Source of the DNA: a virus
Length of the DNA stretch: 64,000 nt
IMG/VR virus record: IMGVR_UViG_3300028840_006907
Location: 288,001-352,000 of that record
Direction: 5' to 3' (one strand)
Made by a program: the position numbers and the translations under genes. The first letter of the stretch is position 1; each line of letters begins with the position of its first letter. The notes under the pieces are model-generated. The model had not been told where the DNA came from, did not search any database, and was given only the letters and a program-made list of their open reading frames with translations. Below, piece after piece: positions 7,611 to 39,084 of the stretch.

Positions 7611-7611
7611 A

Positions 7612-10280: not shown

Positions 10281-10342
10281 AAATTAGATATAAGAAGTCT
10301 CATTGAGACTATTCAATAAAATAATAAATAGGAATAAAAAAG

Positions 10343-11146: not shown

Positions 11147-11176
11147 ATTTACATATAGATATTGAAAGGAGATTGT

Positions 11177-12151
11177 ATGAAACGTATATTGGTTACTGGA
11201 GCAGGCGGTTTTATTGGAGGCCATTTAGTCACTCGATTGAAAGAGGAGGGCTATTGGGTTCGTGGAGTTGATATTAAAGAGCATGAATATAAGAAGACTG
11301 ATGCAGATGAATTTTATCTTAAAGATTTGAGAATAATGCAAAATTGTCTTACTTCATGCGCTGATATTGATGAATGTTATACATTAGCTGCTGACATGGG
11401 TGGTGCAGGATTTGTTTTTACTGGTGAGAATGATGCTGATATCATGCATAATTCTGCGAAGATAAATTTAAATATGGCTGAAGCTTGCCGAATACAAGGA
11501 GTAAAGAAGATATTTTATTCCTCTTCAGCGTGCATGTATCCTGCTCATAATCAAACCGATCCGGATAATCCTTTACTTTCTGAGGATTCTGCTTATCCTG
11601 CAGCTCCCGATAGTGAATACGGGTGGGAAAAACTTTTCTCAGAACATCTTTATTTAGCTTATAACAAAAATTATGGACTGGATGTTCGTGTGGCAAGATT
11701 TCATAATATTTTTGGAGTTTTGGGAACATGGCAAGGTGGAAGAGAAAAAGCTCCTGCTGCATTGAATCGTAAAGTAGCTATGGCTAAAGATGGTGATGTA
11801 ATCGAAGTGTGGGGACCTGGTACTCAAACACGTTCTTTCCTTTATATAGAGGAATGTATTGAAGCAGTACGTCGTTTCATGGAATCAGATTTTTTAGGCC
11901 CTGTAAATATAGGTTCTGAAGAAATGATTTCAATAAACGATCTTGCGAAAATGGCCATAGATATTAGTGGTAAAAAACTTACTATCAAAAATGTGGAAGG
12001 TCCTGTAGGAGTTATGGGCCGTAATTCAGATAATAATTTATATGAAGAAAAGGTTGGATGGAGACCTTCAAAACCTTTACATTATGGTATGGAAAAGACT
12101 TATGCTTGGATAAGTGATCAAATTAAACAAATTTATCCCTTTAGAAAATAG
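11177..12151 (+). CDS. NAD-dependent sugar epimerase (GDP-mannose 3,5-epimerase-like SDR)
   Basis: RBS 'aaaggag' precedes the Met at 11177. 'ILVTGAGGFIGGHLV' and 'YSSSACMYPAHNQ...EYGWEKLFSE' resemble GME-type extended SDRs. Confidence 0.75.
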   Translation: MKRILVTGAGGFIGGHLVTRLKEEGYWVRGVDIKEHEYKKTDADEFYLKDLRIMQNCLTSCADIDECYTLAADMGGAGFVFTGENDADIMHNSAKINLNMAEACRIQGVKKIFYSSSACMYPAHNQTDPDNPLLSEDSAYPAAPDSEYGWEKLFSEHLYLAYNKNYGLDVRVARFHNIFGVLGTWQGGREKAPAALNRKVAMAKDGDVIEVWGPGTQTRSFLYIEECIEAVRRFMESDFLGPVNIGSEEMISINDLAKMAIDISGKKLTIKNVEGPVGVMGRNSDNNLYEEKVGWRPSKPLHYGMEKTYAWISDQIKQIYPFRK

Positions 12152-12154
12152 CTT

Positions 12155-12856
12155 ATGGAATTAATAACAAAAGCAGTTATAATGGCTGGTGGAGAGGGTA
12201 CTCGGTTAAGACCTTATACAGAAATGACTCCTAAAGCAATGTTAGAGGTTAACGGTATTCCTCTCTTACGTTTAATGATAGAGAGACTTCATAGTTTTGG
12301 TATAACTCATTTCTATTTAAGTGTAAATTATCTCTCGAAAGTAATCTGTGATTATTTCGGTGATGGATCTAAATTTGGGATTAATATCACTTATATAAAA
12401 GAACCTTATTCGATGGGGACCGCAGGTTCAATTAGTATGGTTGATATTGAAGAACCTTTTTTGGTTATAAATGGAGATGTTTATACCAGTCTTGATTTTA
12501 GAGATCTCTTTGTAGAATTTAGAAGATCTAAATCAGATCTATTAATATGTTGTAGGGAGCAATTATTAAAAACAGATTATGGTGTTATTGTAAAAGAAGA
12601 TGACAGGATAACTTCCTGGGTTGAAAAACCTGAGTTTACTCATTACATAAGTTGTGGTATCTATGTATTCAAACCAGAGATTGTAAAATATATACCTAAA
12701 GAACATTTTTTTAATATGAATCATTTAGCTGAAGCGGTTATTGAAAAGAATAAAAAAGCTGGATTTTATTTAATGGATGATCTAGATATCTGGATTGATA
12801 TAGGAACTATTGAAGAATATAATAAGGTCAAGGAATTGTTAACAGTAAAAAAATAA
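12155..12856 (+). CDS. sugar-phosphate nucleotidyltransferase
   Basis: 'AVIMAGGEGTRLRPYT' is the nucleotidyltransferase G-rich loop. About 230 aa. Confidence 0.8.
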   Translation: MELITKAVIMAGGEGTRLRPYTEMTPKAMLEVNGIPLLRLMIERLHSFGITHFYLSVNYLSKVICDYFGDGSKFGINITYIKEPYSMGTAGSISMVDIEEPFLVINGDVYTSLDFRDLFVEFRRSKSDLLICCREQLLKTDYGVIVKEDDRITSWVEKPEFTHYISCGIYVFKPEIVKYIPKEHFFNMNHLAEAVIEKNKKAGFYLMDDLDIWIDIGTIEEYNKVKELLTVKK

Positions 12857-12865
12857 GAGGATAAA

Positions 12866-13759
12866 GTGAGAGTTGTATTTATTGGTTGCGTCAATTTCAG
12901 TAAAGCAATGTTGGAATATGCTTTAGAAATAGAGTGCCTTGAAATAGTGGGTATCGTGACAAAATCAGAATCCAATTTTAATACAGATTTCTGTTCTTTG
13001 GCCCCTTTAGCCCAGGAACATAATATTTCTTATCTTTTATACGATCAATTAAAATCGGAAAGTGGACTCAATAGTTGGGTTGAATTAAAATTTCCTGATG
13101 TGATCTTTTGTTTTGGTTGGTCCCATTTATTAAAAGCTGAACTTATAGAAATTCCTAAAATAGGAGTCATAGGACATCATCCTACAATGCTTCCTAAGAA
13201 TAGAGGGCGACATCCAGTAATATGGGCGTTAGCTTTAGGATTGGAGTATACTGCTTCAACTTTTTTCTTTATAGATCCTGGGGTGGATTCTGGGGATATT
13301 CTAGATCAAATCCCTGTAAATATAAATTTTGATGATGATGCTAGTATTCTCTATCAGAAGATCACAGTGACTGCAGGAAAGCAATTAAAAACATTTTCTC
13401 CTCTTTTGGAGAAAGGAGAATATATAGTTGTTAAACAAGATATGAGTAAAGCTACATGGTGGAGAAAAAGGTCAAAAGCTGATGGATATATTGATTGGCG
13501 TATGAGTTGTTTTTCCATTCATAATTTAGTCCGGGCTTTGACTTGTCCTTATGTAGGGGCTCATTGTGAATTTAACAATAGGGATATAAAGATCTGGAAA
13601 GTTAGAATAATGTATAAAGGATTAGATGATATTGAACCAGGTAAAATAATCGATTTAAATAGAAATAAAAATGAAATCTATATAAAGTGCGGGGATGGAG
13701 TTATGTGTATCTATGATCATGAATTTGATCCTCTGCCTGAGATCGGAACTTATTTATGA
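12866..13759 (+). CDS. formyltransferase (sugar N-formyltransferase / Fmt-like)
   Basis: GTG start preceded by 'aagagg'. 'GHHPTMLPKNRGRHPVIWA' matches the formyltransferase catalytic loop (HxSLLPxxRG). Confidence 0.65.
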   Translation: MRVVFIGCVNFSKAMLEYALEIECLEIVGIVTKSESNFNTDFCSLAPLAQEHNISYLLYDQLKSESGLNSWVELKFPDVIFCFGWSHLLKAELIEIPKIGVIGHHPTMLPKNRGRHPVIWALALGLEYTASTFFFIDPGVDSGDILDQIPVNINFDDDASILYQKITVTAGKQLKTFSPLLEKGEYIVVKQDMSKATWWRKRSKADGYIDWRMSCFSIHNLVRALTCPYVGAHCEFNNRDIKIWKVRIMYKGLDDIEPGKIIDLNRNKNEIYIKCGDGVMCIYDHEFDPLPEIGTYL

Positions 13760-14415
13760 AAATTATTGCCATTGCACCTCATCCTGATGATGAGACTCTG
13801 GGATGTGGTGGTACACTCTTGAAGCATCGGGATGCCTCAGATGATATTTATTTGGTTCTTGTTACTACAGCAGGTTCTGAATACAGTGAAGAGCATATCA
13901 ATAATAAATACAAAGAAATAGATAATGCCAACGAGATTTTTGAATTTAAGACTATCTTCGATTTGGGTTTCCCTGTTACTCATATTGGTTCTATAGATAT
14001 ATCAGAAATAATTGGTAAACTAATGGACACATTTAAATTAGTGGGTCCCGATATTATTTATGTTCCTTTCCCGTATGATATTCATACTGATCATCAAGTT
14101 GTTTTTGATGCGGTTTCTTCGTGTACAAAATGGTTCAGAATACCTACTTTGAAAAGAATACTAGCCTATGAAACTATATCTGAAACAGATTTTATTATTA
14201 GACCCGGTCCTTCTTTTATCCCTAATGTTTTTGTCAATATTGAAGATCACATTGATAAAAAGATAGAGGCTATGAAATGCTATGCTAGTGAAATTGCTAT
14301 GCCTCCTTTTCCTCGTAGTGAGGAGAATATCAGAGCCCTGGCAACATTAAGAGGTTCAACATCTGGTTTCAAAGCTGCGGAAGCTTTCATGTTGTTAAAG
14401 GAGATAGATGAATGA
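13756..14415 (+). CDS. PIG-L/LmbE family N-acetylglucosaminyl deacetylase
   Basis: 'IIAIAPHPDDETLGCGGTL' is the PIG-L signature. Confidence 0.8.
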   Translation: MKIIAIAPHPDDETLGCGGTLLKHRDASDDIYLVLVTTAGSEYSEEHINNKYKEIDNANEIFEFKTIFDLGFPVTHIGSIDISEIIGKLMDTFKLVGPDIIYVPFPYDIHTDHQVVFDAVSSCTKWFRIPTLKRILAYETISETDFIIRPGPSFIPNVFVNIEDHIDKKIEAMKCYASEIAMPPFPRSEENIRALATLRGSTSGFKAAEAFMLLKEIDE

Positions 14416-15380
14416 GTAAAAAAGTTTTAGTTACTGGTGCAGGAGGATTTATAGGATCTCATTTAGTAAAACGGCTCATGGAATATGGGTATGATGTTAC
14501 AGCACTGGTAAAATATAATGCAAATGGTTCTTGGGGCTGGTTAGACACATTTCATCGTTCTGTAATCAAAGATATTAGAGTAGAGTTGGGTGATGTTCGG
14601 GATCCGGAACAAATGATGAGATATAAAAACATGGATATTATTTTCCATTTAGCTGCTTTGATAGGTATCCCTTATTCCTATGTAGCTCCTCGTTCATATG
14701 TCGATACCAATATAAACGGTACTTTAAACATGCTTCAGGTTTGTCGGGAAAATGGAGCTACTTATATTCATACATCAACTTCTGAGGTATATGGTACAGC
14801 CCTTTATGAACCTATTGATGAAAAACATCCTATCCAAACACAGAGTCCATATTCAGCTACAAAAAGTGCTGGAGATAGTTTAGCAAAGAGTTATTATCTT
14901 TCCTTCGATTTGCCCGTTATTATAGTAAGACCATTCAATACTTTTGGAACACGTCAATCTTTAAGAGCTGTTATTCCCACTATTATCAGTCAGGCATGTA
15001 AAGATGATGTTATAAAACTTGGAGATCCAAGTACCATGAGAGATTTCATTTTTGTGGATGATACTGTAGAAGGCTTTATAAAGGCCGCTGAGAGGGGAAA
15101 ATCTGGAGAGACTTATAATATAGGTTATGGCAAAAAAAGGTCAATAAGAAGTATTGTGGATGACGTAGGCAATATATTAGGTAAAGTTTTAAAAATTGAA
15201 TCGGAACCAGAGAGAATGCGACCTCCGAAGAGTGAGGTAAGAGTTCTTGTTTGTAATAATGAAAAAGCAAAAAAAGAATTGGGATGGGATATTAAATGGC
15301 CTTTTAAAAAAGGGTTGGAATATTTGATCTACGATTGGCAACGAGAAAACAAAGAAAGTAAAGATTTTTATCATGTCTAG
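14412..15380 (+). CDS. NAD-dependent nucleotide-sugar epimerase/4,6-dehydratase (extended SDR)
   Basis: 'VLVTGAGGFIGSHLV'. Catalytic 'YSATKSAGD' (YxxxK). About 320 aa. Confidence 0.85.
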   Translation: MSKKVLVTGAGGFIGSHLVKRLMEYGYDVTALVKYNANGSWGWLDTFHRSVIKDIRVELGDVRDPEQMMRYKNMDIIFHLAALIGIPYSYVAPRSYVDTNINGTLNMLQVCRENGATYIHTSTSEVYGTALYEPIDEKHPIQTQSPYSATKSAGDSLAKSYYLSFDLPVIIVRPFNTFGTRQSLRAVIPTIISQACKDDVIKLGDPSTMRDFIFVDDTVEGFIKAAERGKSGETYNIGYGKKRSIRSIVDDVGNILGKVLKIESEPERMRPPKSEVRVLVCNNEKAKKELGWDIKWPFKKGLEYLIYDWQRENKESKDFYHV

Positions 15381-16449
15381 TATATTTTTACACATACCTC
15401 ATATAGGGGAAGAGGAAAAGGCAGAAGTAAATAAGGCTCTTAATACTGGAGAATTGACCTGTGGAAATTATTTAAATCAATTTGAAAAAGAATTAAGTGA
15501 AAGGATAAATTCTCCTGTTGTTTTATGCTCTTCTGGAACAGCAGCTTTGCAATTAGGTCTACATGCTATGGGTATAGGTCCAGGAGATGAAGTAATTGTT
15601 CCTAATATGTCTTTTGTTTCGACTATAAATTCTGTTTTATATATGGGTGCTACCCCAGTTTTGTGCGATGTAGGTGATCCTGAATACGAGCTTTCCATTG
15701 ATCCTGAAGAAATAATCGATCTCATAACTCCTCGAACTAAAGCTATAATGGTATCTCATCTTTGTGGGGGATACGGTGACATTGAAAAGATATTAGATAT
15801 AGCTAGTGCGTATAAAGTTGATGTCATTGAAGATGCTGCTCAGGCAGTAGGTTGTACTATGAATGGCAAAGCTTTGGGAACATTTGGAAAGTTTGGTGTC
15901 TATTCATTTAATGGGAATAAAATTATCACCACAGGTGGTGGAGGCACTCTTTTAACTTCAGATCGTGGAATGAGTCAGAGAGTACGAAATCTTCTTAATC
16001 AAGCGAAAGACATTTTAAATCCTTTTTCTCATATAGAGATGGGGTATAATTATAGAATCAGTAATATCCATGCTGCGATAGGTTGTGCTCAATTAAAAAA
16101 ATTAGACTCTTTTATTGATAAGAAAAAATTTATTCATGAGACCTATAAAAAGAAGTTAGACATAATAACTTATAAGGAAAAATCCAATTATTGGTTGAAT
16201 GTTTATAAAGTAAAAAAATTTAATCCTTATGAAGCTGTTTGGAATCTGGATTACAAAAGCATAGAGACTCGTCCTATTTATACCCCTTTTCATATGATGG
16301 ATTTTCTTAAAAAATATGGTGAGGATGAATACCCGGTTTCAGAGAAATTATATAACAGTCTTTTTTGTTTGCCATCTTATTTATCTCTTGATGAAGAGAT
16401 AATCGATAAAGTAGTGGATGAAATAAATAATTTGGAGAATAGTGAATGA
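15373..16449 (+). CDS. DegT/DnrJ/EryC1/StrS-family PLP-dependent sugar aminotransferase
   Basis: 'CSSGTAALQLGL'. 'FSFNGNKIITTGGGG' carries the PLP lysine. Typical length. Confidence 0.85.
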   Translation: MSSIFLHIPHIGEEEKAEVNKALNTGELTCGNYLNQFEKELSERINSPVVLCSSGTAALQLGLHAMGIGPGDEVIVPNMSFVSTINSVLYMGATPVLCDVGDPEYELSIDPEEIIDLITPRTKAIMVSHLCGGYGDIEKILDIASAYKVDVIEDAAQAVGCTMNGKALGTFGKFGVYSFNGNKIITTGGGGTLLTSDRGMSQRVRNLLNQAKDILNPFSHIEMGYNYRISNIHAAIGCAQLKKLDSFIDKKKFIHETYKKKLDIITYKEKSNYWLNVYKVKKFNPYEAVWNLDYKSIETRPIYTPFHMMDFLKKYGEDEYPVSEKLYNSLFCLPSYLSLDEEIIDKVVDEINNLENSE

Positions 16450-17141
16450 AAAAACATATCCTTTTGATGTTTAATATGGGAAATAGTGGTGGGAAGTATT
16501 TCGAAGATATTTGTAATACTCACGAAGATGTTCAGATATGGCAAGAAGCAAATCACCTTTTAAAAGTAGATCATCTTGAGACACCAGTTCAGTTCGACAG
16601 GGTATATGCTTTTTTCATGAAACAGTATGAAGAAAATAAGAAAAAAACCATCGGATTAATAAAAGCTTTTGATCATCGGTTAATAGGATTGGCTGAAAGA
16701 ACTGGTGGGTCTATCATGCAGATGTTCAGACATCCTGTAGGTGTGGTGGGTTTTAAGACAGGCCATAAAATGGCTGAGTGTGAACAGAGAGGTTTGTTTG
16801 ACAAACTAGACACACCTGAAAAGATTTTTGAAGCTCATGTGGATTTTTATGCCTCAATATATAATTCCTATACGAAGAATGCTCATAAGTGGCCTGTTGT
16901 TAAATTAGAGGATTTAAAAAAGTCTTTACGGGAAAGAACTCCGTATTTTGAAGATGTAATGAAAAAAGCGCTGAAAGTTGACTGGCAACCGAAACATACA
17001 AAAAAAGTTATTAATATGGGAGGGCTTGAAGAGAATAGAGATCATTTTGATATTTGGAAATCATGGGAAGATTGGAAGAAAGATATTTTTCTGAAGTATT
17101 TCCAGGAAATAATGAAATTGTATATGTATGAATGGGAATGA
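16446..17141 (+). CDS. sulfotransferase-like protein (paralog of 20367..21158)
   Basis: 'NMGNSGGKYF' is a 5'-PSB-like Gly-rich loop. 'MFRHPVGVVGF' is 3'-PB-like. The C-terminus 'IWKSWEDWKKDIFLKYFQEIM' is shared with the paralog. Confidence 0.4.
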   Translation: MKKHILLMFNMGNSGGKYFEDICNTHEDVQIWQEANHLLKVDHLETPVQFDRVYAFFMKQYEENKKKTIGLIKAFDHRLIGLAERTGGSIMQMFRHPVGVVGFKTGHKMAECEQRGLFDKLDTPEKIFEAHVDFYASIYNSYTKNAHKWPVVKLEDLKKSLRERTPYFEDVMKKALKVDWQPKHTKKVINMGGLEENRDHFDIWKSWEDWKKDIFLKYFQEIMKLYMYEWE

Positions 17142-17155
17142 TAGGAGGACGAAGT

Positions 17156-18151
17156 ATGAAAAATTTGGAAATCATAGCTGAGTTCGGAACTAATCATGTC
17201 GATCCTAATGGTAAAGTTCTTGAAAATATTGAGGATTTGATACATACACTAGCAGACAAAGGAGCGACTGCAGTTAAATTTCAGCTTTTTAAAGCTGATA
17301 ATTTAGTAGAAAAGAATACTGAAGTACATGGCCTTATAAAAAATTTGGAAATTGCTCTTGAAGAGCATGTCAGATTAAAAAAGATCTGCGAAGAAATAGG
17401 TTTGCGGTATCTTTGCACTCCTTTTTGCGTTGAGTCTTTGGATGCTCTTCTTAGTATAGGAGTAAAGGAAATAAAAATAGCCAGTTGTGATTGTGGTAAT
17501 TTACAATTGATGTCAGATATTGTACAACGTCATAACAAAATTCATCGAGTTATAATGGCTACAGGTATGTCAACATTGAATGAAATTGGTGTTTCCATTG
17601 ACATCCTTATTGATGGAGGATTTAATATTGATCTTTTACATTGTACAAGTGTTTACCCTACACCGATATACCGAGCTTCTCTAGACATGATAAGAGTCTT
17701 AAAAAAGAAGTGGGGTTTATTTAATATAGGATATTCGGATCATACATTGGGGACTGAAGTGGTGGGTATAGCCCGAGCTATGGGTTGTACCATTTTTGAA
17801 AAGCATGTAACTCCTGATAGAACAATGCCCGGTTTTGATCATGCTTATTCTTTTCCTATTGATGAATTTGATAAATATGTCGATGCTATCAAGAATGTCG
17901 ATCAGATAATAGGAGAAGAAAGAAAATACGTAGATAAAAAAGAAGCAGTATCTCGTGATGCCATGAAAAGAGGCATATGGTTTAAAAAAGAAGTGTTTAA
18001 AGGGCAGAAAATAACCAGAGATGATATCATTGTACGAAGACCGTTGAAAGGGGCCGTTAACCAGACTTACTATTTTTCTGTTCTTGGTAAAAAAGTAAAG
18101 AAGAATTTTAATGAGGATGATCCCGTTTTAACGGAGAATTTATATGAGTAA
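17156..18151 (+). CDS. N-acylneuraminate/nonulosonic acid synthase (NeuB/PseI/LegI family)
   Basis: RBS 'aggagg' before the Met at 17156. 'IAEFGTNHVDPNG...VKFQLFKAD' resembles the NeuB TIM-barrel N-terminus. C-terminal SAF-like region. Confidence 0.75.
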   Translation: MKNLEIIAEFGTNHVDPNGKVLENIEDLIHTLADKGATAVKFQLFKADNLVEKNTEVHGLIKNLEIALEEHVRLKKICEEIGLRYLCTPFCVESLDALLSIGVKEIKIASCDCGNLQLMSDIVQRHNKIHRVIMATGMSTLNEIGVSIDILIDGGFNIDLLHCTSVYPTPIYRASLDMIRVLKKKWGLFNIGYSDHTLGTEVVGIARAMGCTIFEKHVTPDRTMPGFDHAYSFPIDEFDKYVDAIKNVDQIIGEERKYVDKKEAVSRDAMKRGIWFKKEVFKGQKITRDDIIVRRPLKGAVNQTYYFSVLGKKVKKNFNEDDPVLTENLYE

Positions 18152-19052
18152 AATAGGAATTCGATGTGATTGTGGACCGGTAATGGGCATGGGTCATATA
18201 TCTAGGCAGAAACTTATTTATGAAGAACTCATGAAATTGGACCACGAAGTTTCTTTTTTTGTAAAAAGAGAACGGAACATAGTTAAATCAATGGGACTTC
18301 CACTTTCAAATAAGATTTTAATGGATACAATGGATACTTTGATAATTGATTTAGTGGAAGGTTTTGAGGATTATGATTTTCCTCGAACTAAAATAGTTTT
18401 TTATGATGGTCCGGAAATGATACATTGTGATGCTGATATCATTTTTGCTTTAAATTATAAACAACAGAAATCCTGGTATAGAGGAACGGGTTATTATGTT
18501 GGGCTAGATTATATCCCGATGGATCCCAGCATTTCTAAAATAGAGAAAGAATTTGGTAATTTAGAAAAAATATTAATTATGACAAGTGGAATCGATCCTT
18601 GGGATATGCCAGGACAAATAGTTAGAGTTATTAAGGATCTGGGTTATGACATCACAGTTAAATTATCTAATGCTTATCCAAAAGATTGGATCAGTAAACT
18701 TGAGAAACATGCTGAGATAATTTTAAATGTGGATAGTGTTGCTTCATTATATGAAGAATATGATTTAATGATATGTACTGCAGGAAATGTGTTGTTCGAG
18801 GCTGCTGTAGCTGGTTTACCCTGTATAAGTTTTTCGACGGGTAAAGTTCAGGAGGGCCATGGGGCGTTTATGAGTGACAAAGGTTTTTCAGTTCATCTTG
18901 GAGGCTTTTGGAATAATACTGCTGAAGTTGGTTATTTGTCTGATGCTATAAAATTTTTAGCTGATAGATCGGATAGAGAACAAAGATCTGAGATAGGTCG
19001 TTCTATTTGTGATGGTAAAGGATTAGAAAGGATAATAAATATTATAGGGTAA
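18144..19052 (+). CDS. PseG/LegG-like UDP-sugar hydrolase (GT28-like fold)
   Basis: 'IGIRCDCGPVMGMGHISRQ' resembles the PseG N-terminal Gly/His loop. Sits between the NeuB-like and cytidylyltransferase genes. Confidence 0.45.
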   Translation: MSKIGIRCDCGPVMGMGHISRQKLIYEELMKLDHEVSFFVKRERNIVKSMGLPLSNKILMDTMDTLIIDLVEGFEDYDFPRTKIVFYDGPEMIHCDADIIFALNYKQQKSWYRGTGYYVGLDYIPMDPSISKIEKEFGNLEKILIMTSGIDPWDMPGQIVRVIKDLGYDITVKLSNAYPKDWISKLEKHAEIILNVDSVASLYEEYDLMICTAGNVLFEAAVAGLPCISFSTGKVQEGHGAFMSDKGFSVHLGGFWNNTAEVGYLSDAIKFLADRSDREQRSEIGRSICDGKGLERIINIIG

Positions 19053-19055
19053 AAT

Positions 19056-19718
19056 ATGAAAACTATCGCATTTACATTGCCAGTAAGAAAGAACAGTCAA
19101 AGAGTAAAAAATAAAATGTTAAGACCTTTTGCAGGGAGAAGTTTATTTGAGATCTATTTGGATAAAATCGAATGTTTCAAACATTTGGTTTATGTTGTTG
19201 CCTATGAAGAAGAATTTATTAACATAGCTAAAAAAAGGGGATTTAAATATCTTCATAGAAGTGAAGAGTCTGCTAATGGGGAAACTTCTCCAGTTATCCA
19301 TAGTTATTTAAATGAGATGAAAGAAGATTTCATTTTTATGGCAACTGCGTGTTGTCCTTTGATGAAGACAGAGACTTTGAAAAATATCATGGTAGAGCTA
19401 TGTTCAAAACTCCATGATCCTAATTATCACGGTTTAATAACTGTAAAAAGATGTGGTAATGCTATTTGGAATTCAGAGAAGAAAGTAATGAATGATGATG
19501 TTCGAACTTTCAATACTAAGTTAAGAAAACCTTTTTACATCGAGACTAGTTCCGTTTTTGTTTTTAGACGTGAAAGATTTCTTAAACTAGGTGCATATTG
19601 GGATTTTGGTGATAAAGATCCCGATCTTTATGAAATTAATTCAATTGAAGCTACTGATATTGATACAATGGATGATTTCGAAGTAGCTGAAATACTTTAC
19701 AAAAGAAGGTTGTCATGA
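19056..19718 (+). CDS. CMP-nonulosonic acid synthetase (acylneuraminate cytidylyltransferase family)
   Basis: 'IAFTLPVRKNSQRVKNKMLRPFAG' is the CTP_transf_3 N-terminal motif. Confidence 0.65.
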   Translation: MKTIAFTLPVRKNSQRVKNKMLRPFAGRSLFEIYLDKIECFKHLVYVVAYEEEFINIAKKRGFKYLHRSEESANGETSPVIHSYLNEMKEDFIFMATACCPLMKTETLKNIMVELCSKLHDPNYHGLITVKRCGNAIWNSEKKVMNDDVRTFNTKLRKPFYIETSSVFVFRRERFLKLGAYWDFGDKDPDLYEINSIEATDIDTMDDFEVAEILYKRRLS

Positions 19719-20374
19719 AAAATTATGGCTATGCTGATATGAGTGAAAAAGAAAAATTATCTAAAGAACAAGTATTAGAATTTTGGAAAAATCCTATAAA
19801 CGATAATACTAATAAAAATGAGAACAATGATCCTGAGCATTATTTGAGTGGGGAAAAACGTAGCCGATATCTCGTTGAATTAATTAAAAGGCATTTACAT
19901 AAAGAAGCAAAAATATTAGAGATTGGTTGTAATGTCGGGAGGAATTTGCATTATCTATATGAAACAGGTTATAACAATTTAAATGGGATAGAAATTAATG
20001 ATAATGCTGTTCAAGTGATGCATAAAAATTATCCCGAATTATATGGAAGTGTAGGAATTTATAATTGTCCGGTTGAATCTATTATTACATCTTTTTCCGA
20101 TGAAGCCTATGACTTGGTCTTTACAATGGCTGTTTTAGAGCACATTCATTATGAGAGTGATTTCATTTTCTCTGAGATAGCTCGGGTAGCCAAAAGATGT
20201 ATAATTACAATTGAAGATGAAAAAACTACCTGGAGTAACAGACATTTTCCTCGTAATTATAAGGAGGTGTTTGAGAAGATCGGGAATTGGGTACAGATTT
20301 ATGATATGAATTGTGGTGGGATTAATATACTTGATGATCGATTTTGGGTAAGGGTATTTAAAAAGAATGTCTAA
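19715..20374 (+). CDS. class I SAM-dependent methyltransferase
   Basis: Motif I 'ILEIGCNVGRNL'. Post-I acidic 'LVFTMAVLEHI'. Confidence 0.75.
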   Translation: MKNYGYADMSEKEKLSKEQVLEFWKNPINDNTNKNENNDPEHYLSGEKRSRYLVELIKRHLHKEAKILEIGCNVGRNLHYLYETGYNNLNGIEINDNAVQVMHKNYPELYGSVGIYNCPVESIITSFSDEAYDLVFTMAVLEHIHYESDFIFSEIARVAKRCIITIEDEKTTWSNRHFPRNYKEVFEKIGNWVQIYDMNCGGINILDDRFWVRVFKKNV

Positions 20375-21158
20375 ACGAATAGTGTTAGTCAGAAATATGG
20401 GAAACAGTGGCGGTGCCTGGTTAATGAAGGTATTTAATATGCATGAAAACATATTAATGTTTCAGGAATTAAACCAGATACTGAGGTTAAGATATGATTA
20501 TTCGGATATAAATAAGAAGAATCTAAATTACCCTCATGTTGACTATGATGTAAAAATAGCTCAACGGAGTCGTGATCTTAAAGGATTTTTATTTAATAGT
20601 AGAACTCAGTGTCATATAGCAACTAGTTTTCTTTTATATCAATATGATATTAGAAAAGAAGATGCGATTGGGTTAATAAAATGTTTTGATCATGAATCTA
20701 TAAGAGAATGTAGAGTAAAATGTCCTTCTGTTAAAGTTGTACAAGTTTTAAGAAATCCTATTGGTATAATAGATTTTTATATGAGTCAGGAAAATTTAAG
20801 GCAAATAGCCCATCATGATCCATATGAAATATCTTTTAAAAAACATGTGGATTTCTTTCATAATAAATTTATAGATTTTTGGGAAAATAATGAAAAAAAA
20901 GGTGAGAAAATTATACGACTAGAAGATTTGAATATATCATTGAAAGATGGAAATCCTTTCTTAAAAGACACTATGGAAGATTTATTTGAAGTTAATTTCT
21001 CAAATGAATTTATTGAAAAAATCAAACAAAATTTAGGTTATGGGAATGAAGGTAACCAGAATAAAGAGATATGGCAAAACTGGGAAGGATGGAAAAAAGA
21101 ATATTTCAAGAAATATTTCGAAAATCTAATGATGAATCTTGGCTATGAATTGAGGTGA
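20367..21158 (+). CDS. sulfotransferase-like protein (paralog of 16446..17141)
   Basis: 'RNMGNSGGAWL'. 3'-PB-like 'VLRNPIGIIDFYMS'. Conserved C-terminus 'IWQNWEGWKKEYFKKYFENLM'. Confidence 0.4.
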   Translation: MSKRIVLVRNMGNSGGAWLMKVFNMHENILMFQELNQILRLRYDYSDINKKNLNYPHVDYDVKIAQRSRDLKGFLFNSRTQCHIATSFLLYQYDIRKEDAIGLIKCFDHESIRECRVKCPSVKVVQVLRNPIGIIDFYMSQENLRQIAHHDPYEISFKKHVDFFHNKFIDFWENNEKKGEKIIRLEDLNISLKDGNPFLKDTMEDLFEVNFSNEFIEKIKQNLGYGNEGNQNKEIWQNWEGWKKEYFKKYFENLMMNLGYELR

Positions 21159-21161
21159 TAA

Positions 21162-21737
21162 ATGAATTTATTTGAATCTGCGTACTATACTGAAGAGGAT
21201 CTGAGAAAAGGCGGTTTTAAAAGTGTCGGTAAAAATGTTCAGATTGATAAAAGTTGCACGATAATAGGCTTAGATAAAATCACTCTAGGAGATAATGTTC
21301 GAATCGATGGTTACTGTTGTATTATTGCCACAAAAGAGGAAGTGATTTTCGGTTCTTATATTCATATAGGTTCGTTTTGTCATCTCTGTGGAACTGCAGG
21401 TCTTATAATGAAAGATTTTTCAGGTTTGTCACAAGGAGTTCGAATTTACTCCTCTTCTGATGATTATTCAGGAAAGTTTTTAACTAATCCAACTGTTCCC
21501 GATAAATACACAGGTATAATAAGAGAACCAGTTATTATAGGTAAACATGTTATAATCGGGGCTAATACTGTTATTCTTCCAGGAGTTGTTATAGGTGATG
21601 GGTCAGCTATTGGTGCCATGTCCCTTGTAACAAAAGACGTAGATAAAAATAGTGTCTATGCAGGTTGTCCAGCGAAATTTATAAAAACACGTTCAAAAAG
21701 AATATTTGATTTAGAGAAGAGGTTATTAAATGAATAA
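21162..21737 (+). CDS. hexapeptide-repeat (LbH) sugar acetyltransferase
   Basis: Repeating [LIV]G-x-x-x-x hexapeptides: 'IGANTVILPGVVIGDGSAIGAMSLV'. NeuD/PglD-like size. Confidence 0.8.
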   Translation: MNLFESAYYTEEDLRKGGFKSVGKNVQIDKSCTIIGLDKITLGDNVRIDGYCCIIATKEEVIFGSYIHIGSFCHLCGTAGLIMKDFSGLSQGVRIYSSSDDYSGKFLTNPTVPDKYTGIIREPVIIGKHVIIGANTVILPGVVIGDGSAIGAMSLVTKDVDKNSVYAGCPAKFIKTRSKRIFDLEKRLLNE

Positions 21738-22443
21738 ATCAATTTTCATATGTTCAGGAGGTCGATGTGGTACACATTGGGTTCGGCCTATTCTTGCTCA
21801 GCTTTTAGATTTACAAACTGGGTTTGATTGGAAAGGATATAATCCAAATAAAATTCCCTTTAAAACAGAACCTGGAGCTATTTGGAAAATAAAGATGGTA
21901 GAAAAGAGAGAGCCAGGAGGAAGGATTTATTCAGGGCATATGCCAATTACAGAACTTCTACCTATTATCAGTTTAGTAAATATAATAATTCTTATAAGAG
22001 ATCCTAGAGATATGTGTGTTTCGGCTGCATATTATACTCCAGAAAGAAGAGTATTAACTCAAGAAGAATTTGAATCTAAATTTAATAATTTATTAATACA
22101 AGGAAGCCCGAATCCTGATTTTCATGAATCTTATATAGAAAGTAAGAATAAAATACCTCATTTTTTATTAAAATATGAAGATATGATTCATGATGATTAT
22201 GGCTCAATAGTTAAATTTTTAAATAATTCAGGTTATAAATTTGAAGAAGAAAAATTAAAATATGTACTTGATAAAAACTCATTCAAGAATTTATCAGGTG
22301 GACGAGAAGCCGGTGAGGAGGATAATACCGCTTTTTATAGAAAAGGTATTGTGGGTGATTGGGTAAATTATCTCTCTAATGGTTTACTTGAACAATATAC
22401 CGATAGGCATAAAACTTTGTTGGAAGAATGGGGGTATATGTAA
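21730..22443 (+). CDS. sulfotransferase family protein
   Basis: 'IFICSGGRCGTHW' is 5'-PSB-like. 'IRDPRDMCVSAAYY' matches the 3'-PB motif well (R-x-P-x-D-x-x-V-S-x-Y). Confidence 0.6.
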   Translation: MNKSIFICSGGRCGTHWVRPILAQLLDLQTGFDWKGYNPNKIPFKTEPGAIWKIKMVEKREPGGRIYSGHMPITELLPIISLVNIIILIRDPRDMCVSAAYYTPERRVLTQEEFESKFNNLLIQGSPNPDFHESYIESKNKIPHFLLKYEDMIHDDYGSIVKFLNNSGYKFEEEKLKYVLDKNSFKNLSGGREAGEEDNTAFYRKGIVGDWVNYLSNGLLEQYTDRHKTLLEEWGYM

Positions 22444-22444: not shown

Positions 22445-23116
22445 ATGGAAGATTATTTTGAACAAATGGTAACAGTTTTTAAAAAGTACTTTAAAGAGTA
22501 TTATCGTAATGTATTCACAAATCAATCAGTGGAAACCTGTACAGGTATTTATAATCTTTGTAAAAAAGAAAATCCAGATCAAGTAGTGGAAATGGGAACC
22601 AATCATGGGGCTTCTACTCTTTCTATAGTAAAAGCACTGACTGATTTAGGGAAAGATTTGTCTATTATTACTTCAATTGATTTAGACCACGAGAAATGGA
22701 AGGCAACATTTAATATACAAAAAGAATTGATTAAAAAGTATGATTTAAATTTAGGAAAAGTAAAATTAATAACTCAAGATTTTAATTCAGTAGATCCTGT
22801 AGAAATAATTGACCCTGAAAAGAAAGTATTTATTTTTTATGATATGCATGATCATCGAGGCCCATGGTCACAGAGACTACTTGATTTATGGGTACCTTTA
22901 GTTAAGAATGGTGTCTTCTCTATTCATGATGTAACTCCTGTAAGTGAATCCTTTGAAATAGTTCAGGATAAAATTTCCCCTCGAACAAAGATACAGTATA
23001 AGAGTGGGCAGTATTTTGCAGGTTTCAATGAATGTTTTCGAATAATAAAATGGGCAAATACAAATAACATAAATATAGAGATATTTCCAGGAGGAGTATA
23101 TTTCAGAAATGGCTAA
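22445..23116 (+). CDS. putative SAM-dependent methyltransferase (CmcI/TylF-like)
   Basis: Start at 22445 immediately follows the upstream stop. 'VVEMGTNHGASTLSIV' is motif I-like. Confidence 0.45.
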   Translation: MEDYFEQMVTVFKKYFKEYYRNVFTNQSVETCTGIYNLCKKENPDQVVEMGTNHGASTLSIVKALTDLGKDLSIITSIDLDHEKWKATFNIQKELIKKYDLNLGKVKLITQDFNSVDPVEIIDPEKKVFIFYDMHDHRGPWSQRLLDLWVPLVKNGVFSIHDVTPVSESFEIVQDKISPRTKIQYKSGQYFAGFNECFRIIKWANTNNINIEIFPGGVYFRNG

Positions 23117-23795
23117 CATTTTTATTGGAAAAAATATGTCAAATATAAAAAATATTCCTGGTTTAAATAAAATAACAAAGATACATGATGTGGCTGATTA
23201 TGTGAGATTAGCTGATTTTGTCTATAAAACAATTTCCCATTCTATGGATAGTGGGATTGATTTAGATTATTCTGTTAATCAATTGTATTGGCAATTTGTG
23301 AATAAAAAGAGATTTGGATGGTGCTATATGCATGCTCTGTATTATCATCTTATAGTACAAGAATATGGTCGTGAATCTTTTGTTTATGATTATGGCTTAC
23401 CAGCGCCACAATTAACTCATAGTGTTGTTGTAGTAACTTTACGTGATGATAAGTATTTAATTGATCCTTATTTTAATCGTTATTATGTAACAGAAAAAGG
23501 GAATCCGTATACATTTCCTGACTTATTGGCTATGATAAAAACTGATCCAACAAAAATTTATAGTAAATATGGACCTGGTTTGAAAGAAGTTAAACAGGGA
23601 GATAAATATATAGAAACTTCTCCTGAACAATTTGAAAAAGGAGTATTGGAATCGTGGCGAGTAAATCAGAATTATGATAAAATAATGATGGAAAAATTTA
23701 ATAGCACAAATGCATTATTATTAATGCATTGTAAAGTACAAAAAGCTAAAGTATGTAAAAAAATAGATGGGACAAAGTATTTTGACTTTTTCTAA
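23109..23795 (+). CDS. hypothetical protein with transglutaminase/NAT-like Cys-His-Asp arrangement
   Basis: 'GWCYMHA' (GxCxxxA), 'THSVVVVTL' and 'IDPYF' in the order of a papain-like triad. Confidence 0.35.
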   Translation: MANIFIGKNMSNIKNIPGLNKITKIHDVADYVRLADFVYKTISHSMDSGIDLDYSVNQLYWQFVNKKRFGWCYMHALYYHLIVQEYGRESFVYDYGLPAPQLTHSVVVVTLRDDKYLIDPYFNRYYVTEKGNPYTFPDLLAMIKTDPTKIYSKYGPGLKEVKQGDKYIETSPEQFEKGVLESWRVNQNYDKIMMEKFNSTNALLLMHCKVQKAKVCKKIDGTKYFDFF

Positions 23796-24570
23796 TGTTA
23801 TATCCTTTATCAGTGCATTTAAAAAGTTTAAACCTCCTTATGGTATGATACAGCATTCTGCTATGTATTCATGGAATGCTAATAATATTGAAGTATTTGT
23901 TCCAGATAATGAGGTTGGAGTTAAAGATGCTTGTCAGAGTTATCCTAATATTAAATTAATCCCCGATGTTAAACGGGCTCGGGAAATGGGCTTTTCAAAT
24001 CAGTCTCCTATGGTAAAAGATCTGATTGCAAAAGCTCTACCTTTAATCAATACTCCGATGGTAGCTTTAATTAATTCAGACATTATAATTCAACCTGATT
24101 TTATAGAAAGAATAGAAAAAATACTGAAAGAATACGGTTTTGATATTTATATGGTGGGAACTCGATTTGATATTAAATTGGATATTCATATAAGTTCGGA
24201 AGAGACATATAAACAGGTATTGAGTTCAGAACGAAAAAGTTATGATGGCAGTACTTCTTCAGATATATTTATAGCTTCTAAATTTACCTGGAGGAAGATA
24301 GTTCATGAAATGCCTGATTTTATTCTAGGTCGGTATGGGTGGGATAATTGGTTACATATGATTGCAGAACTTAAAGGATATCGTAAATTTAATTGTACAG
24401 ATGCTTTGACTATTCTTCATTGTGAGCATGATCATAAGCATATAGTTCTTCAGGAAAAGGCTGAAAAACAAAGTGCTCCAAGTTCACAGCATAATTTAAA
24501 GTTATGGAATGAAGTAAAAAATGTTTATGGGACGACCAGGATAAATGCATGGCCAAAAATTGAAATATAA
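23767..24570 (+). CDS. hypothetical protein
   Basis: ORF in operon context. No confident motif. Confidence 0.4.
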   Translation: MGQSILTFSNVISFISAFKKFKPPYGMIQHSAMYSWNANNIEVFVPDNEVGVKDACQSYPNIKLIPDVKRAREMGFSNQSPMVKDLIAKALPLINTPMVALINSDIIIQPDFIERIEKILKEYGFDIYMVGTRFDIKLDIHISSEETYKQVLSSERKSYDGSTSSDIFIASKFTWRKIVHEMPDFILGRYGWDNWLHMIAELKGYRKFNCTDALTILHCEHDHKHIVLQEKAEKQSAPSSQHNLKLWNEVKNVYGTTRINAWPKIEI

Positions 24571-24661: not shown

Positions 24662-25480
24662 ATGAACCTTCTTCAGAGAGTAAAAAAATATTGGGATGAT
24701 AGACCCTGTAATATACGCCATTCAAAGGAACCCGTTGGAACCAGAAATTATTTCAATGAGGTTGAATATAAAAAATATAAAGTTGAACCGCATATATCAG
24801 GTTTCGCTGATTTTAATAAATGGAAGGATAAAAAGGTCCTTGAGATAGGCTGTGGGCTGGGCACTGAGACTATAAATTTTGCTAGAGCTGGTGCTAGGGT
24901 TGTCGCTGTGGATATGTCTGAGAAATCTTTGGAGCTGGCTAAGAAACGAGCGGAAGTTTTTGGCTTGTCCGATAAGATTACATTTTATCAGGGAAATGCT
25001 GAAGAACTTGATAAATTTATCCCAGCTCAGAAATTTGATCTTATCTGGTCTTTTGGTGTTATTCATCATACCCCGAATCCTGAGAACGTTATTGAATGTA
25101 TCAAGAAGTACCTGTCTCCAAGCAGTGAATTACGAATGATGGTTTATAATAAATTTAGTTGGAAAGTATTCTGGATCCTTTTTAAGTACGGGAAGTTTAA
25201 GTTTTGGGATATTGATAAATTCATAGCTCAAAATTCAGAAGCTCAGACCGGGTGCCCAATCACCTACACTTATACAAATAAATCAGTTCAAAAATTACTA
25301 AAAGGGTTTGTAATCGATAATATTAAAATTGAGCATATTTTTCCTTATAAAATTCGTGAATATAAGGAGAATAAATTCAAATTTATCTGGTATTTTAGAT
25401 ACCTGCCCAAATGGTTTTTTCATTGGTTAGAAAAGAGAATCGGTTGGCATATGTGCATAATCGCCAGATGGAGAATTTAG
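24662..25480 (+). CDS. class I SAM-dependent methyltransferase
   Basis: Motif I 'VLEIGCGLGTETINFARAGARVVAVDMS'. Post-I 'DLIWSFGVIHH'. Confidence 0.8.
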   Translation: MNLLQRVKKYWDDRPCNIRHSKEPVGTRNYFNEVEYKKYKVEPHISGFADFNKWKDKKVLEIGCGLGTETINFARAGARVVAVDMSEKSLELAKKRAEVFGLSDKITFYQGNAEELDKFIPAQKFDLIWSFGVIHHTPNPENVIECIKKYLSPSSELRMMVYNKFSWKVFWILFKYGKFKFWDIDKFIAQNSEAQTGCPITYTYTNKSVQKLLKGFVIDNIKIEHIFPYKIREYKENKFKFIWYFRYLPKWFFHWLEKRIGWHMCIIARWRI

Positions 25481-25631: not shown

Positions 25632-26096
25632 TTACAACCAGTCATCTTCTTTTCGGATAGATATTTTAGATAAAGTATCATTGTTAAGAAAAAGAGTTAC
25701 AATATAACGAACCCATTGATCATCATAATACCCAAATTCTTGTATTTCACTATTATCTGGAAATGAATCTACTATAACACTAGGTCCATAAACTTTCAGG
25801 ATTTTTCTTTTTGACATTCCAATCTTTAAATTTTGAAATTTACCTTCTTTAATTTCGATGTTATATAATCGGTGAGCAAAGATGTAACAAACCATATTCG
25901 GATAGTGCATATAAAGATCACTTTTAATAGTATCAATTTTTATAGGTTCTCCGAATTTTTCTATAACATCTTTAACAGTAAGGTCTTTTCGAAGATCGAA
26001 ATCAGGTCCGAATGGGAAGACACCGCAACTGTCGATTGAACGACTGAAGCATAAACTTACAAAAAGTATGATTGATATTAAAGTTTTCATATTCAC
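25632..26096 (-). CDS. secreted hypothetical protein
   Basis: N-terminal signal-peptide-like 'MNMKTLISIILFVSLCFSRS'. Confidence 0.5.
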   Translation of the reverse strand: MNMKTLISIILFVSLCFSRSIDSCGVFPFGPDFDLRKDLTVKDVIEKFGEPIKIDTIKSDLYMHYPNMVCYIFAHRLYNIEIKEGKFQNLKIGMSKRKILKVYGPSVIVDSFPDNSEIQEFGYYDDQWVRYIVTLFLNNDTLSKISIRKEDDWL

Positions 26097-26195
26097 TCCT
26101 CTCTATATATTATACCAGTCAAATAGCCATTTTATACCAAAAAAAATTGTAATAATCTTTTAATTGCGATGTAACGTAATGAAAAGGGGTAAATT

Positions 26196-26963
26196 ATGAT
26201 AGATGCGAAAAGAGTCGTTTTTTCATACTTAAATTTAAAAGTTGCCAAAGATATGACACCAGAAGAGGCAAAGAAAATAGTGGATAAAATGCCTCCAGGA
26301 AGATTTGATAAAATTAAAAAATTGTTACAGCCTTTTGCTAGATTGTTTAAAAAATCTTTTAATGTAAGAGATGCTGGTGTCCTTGATACTTTAGGAAAAT
26401 TAAGTAGGGCTAAGGGAATTCCTCTTGTTGAATTGTTAGCAGTAGCTTCTATCATGTTTGGTGCTACTGTTCCGTCTTATGCTGACACTGCTAAAGAAAA
26501 AGCTCCAATAGTTCAAGTAAAAGAGAAAAGGCCCATTTCTGAGGTAAGAGCGGATCTAGAAAAAGTTTTTGAATTACCAAAAGGTTTAATGACTCTTGTA
26601 AAAGTTACTCCTCAATTAGCAATAAATTTAAAAGGTATAGATGGATTTGTAGAGACCGTGGGTAAAAATCTCGATAAGAGTATAACTCCTGAAGTTTCAG
26701 TATTGTTAAATCAAGTCCCAGATAATCAATGGCCTGAATTATTGTCTGGTTTAGTAATGCAGAAAATTCAAGAAGATGATAAAGTTGATAAGAAATTTAA
26801 AAAGTTTATTAAACACCATAAAACTAGCCCTCAAAATATGAAAAAAGAGATAGCAAAAGTTGTCTCACAAGAGAAATCTGGCATTCAAAAATTTGTTGAT
26901 AAAGGCATGGCTGAGAAGGGCCTAGCTAAAAAAGCCCATGAAAGAGGCTATTTAATTTCATAA
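26196..26963 (+). CDS. hypothetical K-rich protein
   Basis: RBS-like 'aaaagggg' upstream. No motif. Confidence 0.45.
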   Translation: MIDAKRVVFSYLNLKVAKDMTPEEAKKIVDKMPPGRFDKIKKLLQPFARLFKKSFNVRDAGVLDTLGKLSRAKGIPLVELLAVASIMFGATVPSYADTAKEKAPIVQVKEKRPISEVRADLEKVFELPKGLMTLVKVTPQLAINLKGIDGFVETVGKNLDKSITPEVSVLLNQVPDNQWPELLSGLVMQKIQEDDKVDKKFKKFIKHHKTSPQNMKKEIAKVVSQEKSGIQKFVDKGMAEKGLAKKAHERGYLIS

Positions 26964-27496
26964 ATAGCTGTCTTTGTAGTTTTCATACCGAAAAGTTTAA
27001 ATGGATATTTCCCTAAAAACAATTCTATTGCATCTTGGTATACGTATTCTACAGGATTTTGAAGAATTATAATTCCTCCTTTTCTCACTTTTGGAACAGC
27101 CTCTTTGATACAAGAAGATCTTGATCTACCATTTATGAAAATGATATCAAAAGAATGATCAGCAAAGTTATTTATATAATTTACATAGTCTCTAAAATTC
27201 TTATATAAATAAGCCGGTACAGTACTTCCGAAGCTCTCATGGCTGTAAGGAAAGGGTTTAGGGTCATCGATAGGTTCTATTAATTCATAAGTAAAATTTC
27301 CTTTATTAGGTCCTATCTGTTTTTTTAATGTCTCATATGTTTCTCTGTCATGTTCCACTGATACTACAGCTTTAACAGTTCTTCTGAAATAAATAGTAGA
27401 ATCTCCTGATCCATATTCAAAAGTGATCATGTCATATTCAATGAAACTTTTTAACCAGTCTATAGCTTCAGGTTCAATTGGGGGGTAAACTTCCAT
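26948..27496 (-). CDS. putative class I methyltransferase-like protein
   Basis: 'FEYGSGDSTIYF' is a Gly-rich motif I. 'FDIIFINGRSR'. 'VRKGGIIILQN'. Confidence 0.45.
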   Translation of the reverse strand: MEVYPPIEPEAIDWLKSFIEYDMITFEYGSGDSTIYFRRTVKAVVSVEHDRETYETLKKQIGPNKGNFTYELIEPIDDPKPFPYSHESFGSTVPAYLYKNFRDYVNYINNFADHSFDIIFINGRSRSSCIKEAVPKVRKGGIIILQNPVEYVYQDAIELFLGKYPFKLFGMKTTKTAIYEIK

Positions 27497-27856: not shown

Positions 27857-27858
27857 TT

Positions 27859-39081: not shown

Positions 39082-39084
39082 TTA

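Follow-up and report, generated by a model that had tools for sequence, protein, structure and literature searches.

Sulfotransferase-fold genes in a nonulosonic acid island of a huge phage-like element and the glycan sulfation that they probably serve

Does a phage-like element carry the means to sulfate glycans? The question is raised by a window of 64,000 nucleotides, positions 288,001 to 352,000 of the IMG/VR virus record IMGVR_UViG_3300028840_006907, in which a sequence-only reading had seen four sulfotransferase-like genes inside a glycan cluster. These genes are called A, B, C and D here, in their order along the window. All four, together with a rhodanese gene close to D, are present as open reading frames (ORFs) on the plus strand (Table 1; positions count from the first letter of the window). 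The scores given below show that these features do not arise by chance. Sulfation of glycans by this element is probable; it would be uncommon for a phage, though the enzyme types are known. The earlier picture largely stands for A, B and C, which have both the sulfotransferase fold and the glycan context. D lies outside the cluster, about 27 kb from C and in a variable island of its own, and A and B have only a partial signature for the sulfate donor 3'-phosphoadenosine 5'-phosphosulfate (PAPS), with one canonical catalytic residue missing.

Sulfotransferase-superfamily genes A, B and C

Gene C is the canonical member of the set. Its product scores 81.1 bits against Sulfotransfer_1 (PF00685; cut-off 22, E 1.1e-22), and residues 4-234 align with profile positions 3-254 of 255, which is the whole domain. 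When C is compared with human SULT2A1 (4ifb; E 3e-11), all canonical elements are in register: the 5'-phosphosulfate-binding (PSB) loop GRCGTHW, the catalytic His in SGHMP, the 3'-phosphate-binding (3'-PB) Arg and Ser in RDPRDMCVS, and the motifs KYEDM and YRKGIVGDW. By both score and motifs C belongs to Sulfotransfer_1. SGGRCGTHW and RDPRDMCVSAAYY, the two stretches on which the sequence-only reading had relied, are both found in its translation. BLASTP finds nothing between C and D, and tblastn finds no relative of C or of B among 50,697 deposited phage genome records.

A and B are divergent. They had been described as mutual paralogs, and BLASTP aligns them over their full length at 29% identity (E 2e-34); NMGNSGG, RHP or RNP and a W-rich C-terminus are indeed common to the two translations. 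A retains MGNSGG, E, GLIK, RHP and LED, and its start and stop overlap both neighboring genes. Relative to A, B has an insertion of about 35 residues (roughly 42-78), which is the low-confidence part of the B structure model. In the public gene call, B (P0001, 253 amino acids; window 20367-20397, L001 2001) starts at Met11 and lacks the fold's first beta-strand; the 263-residue protein starting at 20367 is favored by homologs and by the structure model.

The sulfotransferase fold of A and B is accompanied by homology to recognized sulfotransferases at the sequence level. Demonstrating this homology required an exhaustive profile search and a 72-sequence profile, because comparisons with hhalign and BLASTP had failed. 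Searches of the PDB sequences with A and B (phmmer) and with a 13-sequence profile (hmmsearch) gave only noise. A word-indexed search of 5.8 billion proteins returned 34 relatives, none of which has a Pfam domain or an informative name. A profile of these 34 sequences, run exhaustively with hmmsearch against 1.84 billion representatives (50% identity), found 85 proteins at E <= 1e-3; when 73 of them were scanned against Pfam, five matched Sulfotransfer_1 and five Sulfotransfer_3. The Pfam-positive proteins P0114 (family-profile E 4e-6, library-wide), P0116 (1e-5) and P0127 (4e-4) have GRSGS or GRSGT loops. Finally, a 72-sequence superfamily profile run against the PDB sequences reached human TPST1 (E 5e-4), TPST2 (0.011), the CurM sulfotransferase (0.06) and NodH (0.29). 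A pattern scan of IMG/VR and of 185,579 GTDB species-representative genomes confirmed no relative of A or B, an absence that is only indicative, as the scan used two short motifs. A and B represent a previously unannotated, mostly metagenome-only sulfotransferase lineage.

The likely working of this lineage can be considered in the light of the TPSTs. The catalytic residues of TPST2 are Arg78, Glu99 and Lys158. By analogy with the tick TPST, the Arg is a general acid acting on the 5'-phosphate, the Glu is the general base and the Lys stabilizes the transition state; Ala mutants of these residues lose most or all activity (PMC10951654). In a profile-to-TPST alignment of low identity, N13 of B corresponds to the Arg of the PRSGTT loop, E34 to the second Glu of HPDIRCGEE, K105 to the Lys of CNKDPF, R129 and F137 to the Arg and the final Ser of MVRDGRASVHS, and L185-E186 to the YE of HYEQL. 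The secondary structure of the B model agrees with this: strand 4-10 runs into the GNSGG loop, which helix 13-24 follows, E34 comes after strand 29-33, K105 after strand 100-104, and R129 between strand 123-128 and helix 131-140.

The candidate catalytic base and transition-state Lys, as placed by this low-identity alignment, are invariant in the core family, as is the 3'-PB Arg. Position 34 is Glu in all 34 core members, in 41 of 43 mid-range relatives and in 12 of the 27 relatives in the tail nearest to canonical enzymes. Position 105 is Lys in 34 of 34 and 47 of 49, with His in 12 of the 23 tail sequences, and position 129 is Arg in 34 of 34, 47 of 49 and 22 of 22. Position 13, in the PSB loop, is Asn in 32 core members and His in two; the mid-range relatives have His (19), Asn (10) or Arg (7 of 40), and the tail has His (9) or Arg (5 of 27). 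At position 137 the core has Phe (22), His (5), Tyr (3) or others, Ala among them (4), the mid-range is variable, and Ser appears in 14 of 21 tail sequences. Judged from these alignments, the 3'-PB signature of A and B is partial, as only the Arg on its strand-loop-helix is kept, and of the TPST triad the Glu and Lys equivalents are present and the Arg equivalent is Asn. The lineage would thus be one with a TPST-like Glu/Lys arrangement and a 3'-phosphate Arg, from which the loop Arg or Lys, the 3'-PB Ser and the RKG motif have gone. Since three catalytic or cofactor residues are invariant at 22-69% identity, A and B are probably still enzymes, and they probably still use PAPS. As the PSB loop lacks the defining Lys or Arg, they are not assigned to any of the named sulfotransferase families as regular members.

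The nonulosonate island and its carrier

The glycan island spans about 35 kb (~4.3-39.8 kb of the window), and many gene starts and stops between ~8.9 and 25.5 kb overlap in an operon-like manner. All enzyme classes of legionaminic or pseudaminic acid synthesis are present by Pfam. The cluster likely makes a sialic-acid-like sugar, a 5,7-diamino nonulosonate of the legionaminic/pseudaminic type. This assignment, drawn from gene content, is to the class and not to a stereoisomer, because the NCBIfam scores lie below the equivalog cut-offs (LegB 390 against 475, LegC 304/420, NeuB 244/400, PseG 64/154, PseF 48/206) and because a PseG-like hydrolase stands where the legionaminic acid pathway has a 2-epimerase.

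Table 1. Genes and gene blocks of the window
Feature	Position	Strand	Remarks
GT2 + GT1 + methyltransferase fusion (GT, glycosyltransferase)	4336-7320	+	994 amino acids (aa); 5' edge of island
Thymidylate kinase	7546-8247	+	PF02223 E 2e-42
UDP-glucose dehydrogenase family	8931-10280	+	Pfam/NCBIfam
Protein without assigned family	10343-11146	+	
Epimerase	11162-12151	+	Pfam/NCBIfam
Nucleotidyltransferase	12155-12856	+	Pfam/NCBIfam
Formyltransferase	12866-13759	+	Pfam/NCBIfam
PIG-L de-N-acetylase	13756-14415	+	Pfam/NCBIfam
LegB-like 4,6-dehydratase	14412-15380	+	Pfam/NCBIfam
LegC-like aminotransferase	15373-16449	+	Pfam/NCBIfam
A, divergent sulfotransferase-superfamily paralog	16446-17141	+	231 aa; between LegC-like aminotransferase and NeuB
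NeuB-family nonulosonate synthase	17132-18151	+	PF03102 E 2.8e-58
PseG-like nucleotide-sugar hydrolase	18144-19052	+	TIGR03590 E 2e-17, below cut-off
CMP-sugar cytidylyltransferase	19056-19718	+	PF02348 E 5e-10
S-adenosylmethionine (SAM) methyltransferase	19715-20374	+	Methyltransf_11 E 2e-11
B, divergent sulfotransferase-superfamily paralog	20367-21158	+	263 aa
Hexapeptide-repeat acyltransferase	21162-21737	+	PF00132 E 3e-13; WbbJ-like, NeuD/PglB-like; between B and C
C, cytosolic-type PAPS-dependent sulfotransferase	21730-22443	+	237 aa; by family and motifs
Methyltransf_24/CmcI-like	22445-23116	+	directly downstream of C
Arylamine N-acetyltransferase (NAT)-like	23109-23795	+	
Protein without assigned family	23767-24570	+	
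SAM methyltransferase	24662-25480	+	
Glycan-related block	26948-39759	-	components in text
Rhodanese, single-domain	47967-48536	+	189 aa; two genes upstream of D
D, compact Sulfotransfer_2-family sulfotransferase	49032-49610	+	192 aa; GTG start
Tad3 family (anti-Thoeris, type I Thoeris inhibitor)	50788-51252	+	PF25185 E 5e-33 in ORF sweep

The minus-strand block contains a split E1/transketolase-like pair, a radical SAM gene, Methyltransf_4, FkbM, GT10, a GT2-methyltransferase fusion and a GtrB-like glycosyltransferase. The radical SAM gene is flanked by the two parts of a split thiamine-diphosphate enzyme, one N-terminal and E1_dh/DXP-synthase-like, the other the pyrimidine-binding part of a transketolase (27859-28485, 28478-29545 and 29514-30038, all minus); this arrangement may mean an unusual branched or C-acylated sugar modification. 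The methyltransferase-GT2 fusion (684 amino acids, 34711-36765, minus) is the second glycosyltransferase/methyltransferase fusion of the island. At the 5' edge, the thymidylate kinase gene lies between the first such fusion and the UDP-glucose-dehydrogenase-family gene. The GC skew and the AT skew change sign exactly over the minus-strand genes (window 26000-40000), which is consistent with a strand-specific composition that tracks the direction of transcription.

The arrangement recurs in related contigs. A 16-kb contig (L004) has the same gene order, and its orthologs of A, B and C are 76%, 56% and 49% identical to those of the window. A 49-kb contig (L002) has no A-type gene and two tandem B-type genes, and a formyltransferase-domain gene precedes its Sulfotransfer_1 gene in place of the hexapeptide gene. 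The upstream sugar-nucleotide genes (8931-16449) are syntenic in both. L009 and L010 contain the module C-type, Methyltransf_24, A/B-type, with or without the NAT-like gene. A different contig of 389 kb (L005) has an A/B-type gene and a Sulfotransfer_2 gene in another glycan cluster. In L007 a single protein joins an A/B-family domain to a class I methyltransferase domain at its C-terminus (4784-6262, P0061, 475 amino acids). A carbohydrate acceptor is supported, because the A/B genes recur with sugar-tailoring enzymes.

Another A/B-family match, P0125 (540 amino acids), has an FkbM methyltransferase domain. Together with P0061 this is a hint of the Rosetta-stone type that one substrate undergoes both sulfation-like and methylation steps. 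An intein is present in the UDP-glucose-dehydrogenase-family gene of L002 (1-364, 640-residue product) and of L005 (6600-9032, 810-residue product), the latter with a LAGLIDADG endonuclease signature; the 449-residue copy of the window is intein-free.

The window is best read as part of a phage-like genome of 390-470 kb, a huge phage. Contigs with identical A, B and C proteins measure 388,651 to 469,617 bp. The GC content of the window is ~32%. PHROG matches include a virion structural protein at 46054-46431 (E 7e-10) and a major head protein, the latter located within the window and not pinned to a single ORF. Further phage markers are Tad3, a fusion protein with Mom-like, HNH and D5-like parts, and thymidylate kinase. 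No tRNA genes were found in the window, its Pfam and PHROG sweeps list no typical cellular housekeeping families, and a megablast of 24 kb of it against the 50,697 phage records gave no match. The fusion protein (835 amino acids, 53409-55916, minus) combines Mom-like DNA-modification, HNH/homing-endonuclease and D5-like regions. Its gene and about 3.6 kb of further ORFs (55963-59614, plus), one of them with an AAA/SbcC-like N-terminus, form an insertion relative to the related contigs L015 and L016, in which a 301-residue gene is followed directly by an 81-residue gene and a large gene of 1089-1228 residues.

Gene D and its variable island

D has a complete sulfotransferase fold with a PSB loop and a 3'-PB motif. 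PKTGSRS and RNPWAMLVSMY are in its translation as had been reported, and the clear 3'-PB signature of Arg plus Ser that the sequence-only reading claimed for C and D holds in both. D scores 38.6 bits against Sulfotransfer_2 (PF03567; cut-off 22), with only residues 2-77 aligned, and PF03567 is present in 16 of 17 D homologs. His41, which is invariant and lies between the PSB and 3'-PB motifs, is a candidate for the catalytic base.

The rhodanese scores 39.5 bits against PF00581 (cut-off 22.2, E 8.4e-10) and contains CYLGHTS, a Cys-containing loop of the active-site type, which places it among the rhodaneses. The loop presumably resembles the CxxxxxS loop of the GlpE type. This gene had been said to adjoin D; it is there, with one ORF of 162 residues between the two. 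Rhodaneses act on sulfane sulfur and not on sulfate, and no link of this gene to PAPS chemistry is evident.

In three related contigs (L015-L017) the D island is flanked by conserved core genes, which correspond to 43.2-47.0 kb and 52.4-53.3 kb of the window. The rhodanese lies upstream of D in L015 and L017 and is absent from L016, so its adjacency to D is recurrent and not obligatory; common descent of the compared contigs, which are all related, could account for it. Tad3 adjoins or is near the D ortholog in all three, in varying gene order, and tblastn of their Tad3 genes places the match in the window at ~50830-51207. One of the three islands has in addition a C39 peptidase. D is a compact Sulfotransfer_2 enzyme, separate from the other three, and belongs to a variable accessory island; its acceptor is not necessarily a glycan. 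It may serve the glycan pathway in trans; a role in counter-defence or as an accessory gene, with a substrate other than a glycan, is equally possible.

Proposed pathway, alternatives and known systems

Gene presence, family and fold assignment, residue conservation and synteny were observed directly; from them we infer that A and B use PAPS, which acceptor and product are involved and what the biological target is (virion or host surface). In the proposed pathway, a 4,6-dehydratase, an aminotransferase, N-acyl and N-formyl transferases, a NeuB synthase and a CMP-activating enzyme would make a nonulosonic acid of the legionaminic/pseudaminic type, and the accompanying glycosyltransferases and many methyltransferases would build and decorate the glycan. 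C would act as a PAPS-dependent O-sulfotransferase with a His base. In A and B, Glu34 would serve as the general base, Lys105 would stabilize the transition state and Arg129 would hold the 3'-phosphate of PAPS. With PAPS supplied by the host, one or more sulfate esters would be placed on the nonulosonic acid itself or on a neighboring sugar such as glucuronic acid, where they would join methyl, acetyl and formyl groups. Taken as a whole, with an island for nonulosonate synthesis, a canonical C, a divergent A/B lineage of TPST layout and a separate D, this explanation is the one that we favor, with moderate confidence.

Several findings speak against it. The Pfam searches that had been proposed as a check matched C to Sulfotransfer_1 and D to Sulfotransfer_2 and gave no match for A or B, and NCBIfam gives none for these two either. 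When the A/B family was compared by hhalign with C, with D and with the D family, only short matches at the loop and the RNP motif appeared, at non-significant probability. The similarity that links A and B with sulfotransferases already known is weak (E 5e-4 to 4e-6, 9-15% identity). The Lys or Arg of the PSB loop is replaced by Asn in nearly the entire core family, the 3'-PB Ser position is unconstrained, and no RKG motif is found near the C-terminus. The LegB, LegC, NeuB and PseG scores all fall short of their equivalog cut-offs. The Pfam sweep found no APS (adenosine 5'-phosphosulfate) kinase or ATP sulfurylase domain in the 48 other ORFs of the window at E <= 1e-4; PAPS would therefore have to be supplied by the host or by genes on another part of the contig.

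The changes in the loop and in the 3'-PB motif, and the lack of RKG, raise the possibility that A and B are catalytically dead, as pseudoenzymes or as partners that bind PAP(S) or the acceptor and assist or regulate C. The loss of activity in TPST Ala mutants of the equivalent Arg (PMC10951654) points the same way, and so does the recurrence of family genes beside a canonical Sulfotransfer_1 gene in the window, L002, L004, L009 and L010; the three complete clusters (window, L004, L002) have two family copies each, which is compatible with a heteromer. The strict invariance of Glu34, Lys105 and Arg129 in such diverged proteins would, however, be unusual for a dead site, and the His or Arg of relatives at the loop position suggests a tolerated polar substitution rather than decay. 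Moreover, L005 and L007 have an A/B-like gene and no Sulfotransfer_1 gene detected in the stretch read. We regard dead paralogs as unlikely. It is still more improbable that A and B use a fold of the sulfotransferase or P-loop-kinase kind for other chemistry, with APS, ATP or a CMP-sugar as donor, or as a sugar kinase or hydrolase. The sequence-only reading would have been overturned by a place for the two paralogs in a P-loop family other than the sulfotransferases; every sequence-level link goes to sulfotransferases, and the Walker A motif GxxxxGK[ST] is absent. Equivalents of the catalytic Glu and Lys of TPST are conserved, and the alignments with sulfotransferases extend over ~190-200 residues, including the C-terminal helices, as against 122-169 for kinases. 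A kinase reading of the GNSGG loop was rejected, as the loop lacks the Walker A Lys and the kinase fold matches are lower and shorter.

For D, and possibly the rhodanese, the alternative is a role apart from glycans, in which an accessory or counter-defence gene acts on a small molecule, a nucleotide or a protein. Conserved core genes (46438-47013 and 52410-53315) enclose the island of D, and what this island contains differs among related contigs. The Tad3 anti-Thoeris gene adjoins or is near D in all three of the contigs examined and in the window, and a block of opposite-strand genes separates D from C. Against this, characterized Sulfotransfer_2 members are mostly carbohydrate sulfotransferases, the Sulfotransfer_2 gene of L005, 27% identical to D, is inside a glycan cluster of another huge-phage contig, and the Tad3 linkage may reflect only the shared ancestry of the compared contigs. 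A non-glycan D is doubtful, though a serious candidate. A broader proposal joins the two themes: huge phages would make a sulfated, methylated and N-formylated or N-acetylated glycan of the legionaminic type by means of phage-restricted A/B enzymes that would do without the PSB-loop Lys or Arg, elsewhere nearly universal, and so have a mechanistically distinct site for sulfuryl transfer (Asn/His, Glu and Lys), and D, always near Tad3 in a variable island, would be a counter-defence enzyme acting on a target other than a glycan, for example an immune signaling nucleotide. This broader proposal is rather unlikely. Least probable of all is that the element is a fragment of a low-GC cellular genome with a surface-polysaccharide locus. 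Glycan loci this large are usual in bacteria, the majority of the window ORFs have no PHROG match, and one related contig is within the NCBI genome-assembly record GCA_028278125.1. The virion structural and major-head matches, Tad3, the Mom-like protein, the homing endonucleases, the lack of tRNA genes and housekeeping families, and the pattern scan of species-representative genomes, which yielded no A/B relative, argue for a phage.

Literature searches on phage sulfotransferases with nonulosonic acid, on legionaminic acid in huge phages and on pseudaminic or legionaminic acid in sulfated form turned up nothing that describes such an arrangement. The enzymes are of known kinds, the carrier that combines them is unusual, and with them comes to light a divergent sulfotransferase lineage that had no annotation. 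Phages are seldom credited with sulfated glycans, and the nonulosonic acids are sugars central to recognition at the surfaces of bacteria and archaea. With a whole pathway and three or four sulfotransferases, a huge phage could by itself alter the surface chemistry of host or virion, with possible effects on charge, receptor masking and superinfection exclusion. The A/B family amounts to a natural experiment on the catalytic residues that a sulfotransferase can do without, and its profile offers annotators a new aid for spotting sulfation modules in viral glycan islands.

Among known enzymes, C resembles the cytosolic sulfotransferases of the SULT2A1 type (PDB 4ifb/1j99) over its full length, in PSB loop, His, 3'-PB motif, YEDM and RKGxxGDW. 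It differs in being shorter, in having Arg rather than Lys in the PSB loop, and in being phage-encoded inside a nonulosonic-acid cluster. A and B are like TPST1 and TPST2 (PDB 5wri, 3ap3) and the tick TPST (8w5z) in layout only and are not members of that family: Asn or His stands in the place of the PSB residue Arg78, the 3'-PB Ser has been lost, nothing points to a peptide acceptor, and the context is one of carbohydrate tailoring. In comparison with the Sulfotransfer_2 carbohydrate enzymes (heparan sulfate 2-O- and 6-O-sulfotransferases, PDB 3f5f and 5t03), D is small, has no membrane anchor and matches the Pfam profile over its N-terminal part alone, and its setting is a variable phage island with Tad3 and a rhodanese. 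Phage-encoded proteins weakly similar to D are known from Stenotrophomonas phage vB_SmaS-DLP_6 (KU682439.2) and from an uncultured 484-kb phage (LR756508.1); these are the two weak tblastn matches of D among the 50,697 phage records (25-26% identity, E 4e-7 and 9e-5), and one of them is annotated as a sulfotransferase. Unlike in the window, these genes are single and are not shown to be in a multi-sulfotransferase nonulosonic-acid island.

The pathway itself has its counterparts in the legionaminic and pseudaminic acid clusters (LegB/C/H/G/I/F and PseB/C/H/G/I/F), with which the window has in common the dehydratase, the aminotransferase, the NeuB-family synthase, the CMP-transferase and the acyl- and formyl-transferases; it departs from the Leg clusters in that a PseG-like hydrolase replaces the 2-epimerase of the LegG/NeuC type. 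A precedent for the proposed product is the glycan of the S-layer protein of Halorubrum sp. PV6 and of the HRPV-1 spike, in which the sulfate need not be on the nonulosonic acid itself and for which the host, not the virus, encodes the pathway (PMC6137143). The window matches the building blocks of this glycan with its nonulosonate genes, its UDP-glucose-dehydrogenase-family enzyme and its sulfotransferases. It differs from HRPV-1 in its GC content of ~32% and in that the virus-like element itself encodes the pathway.

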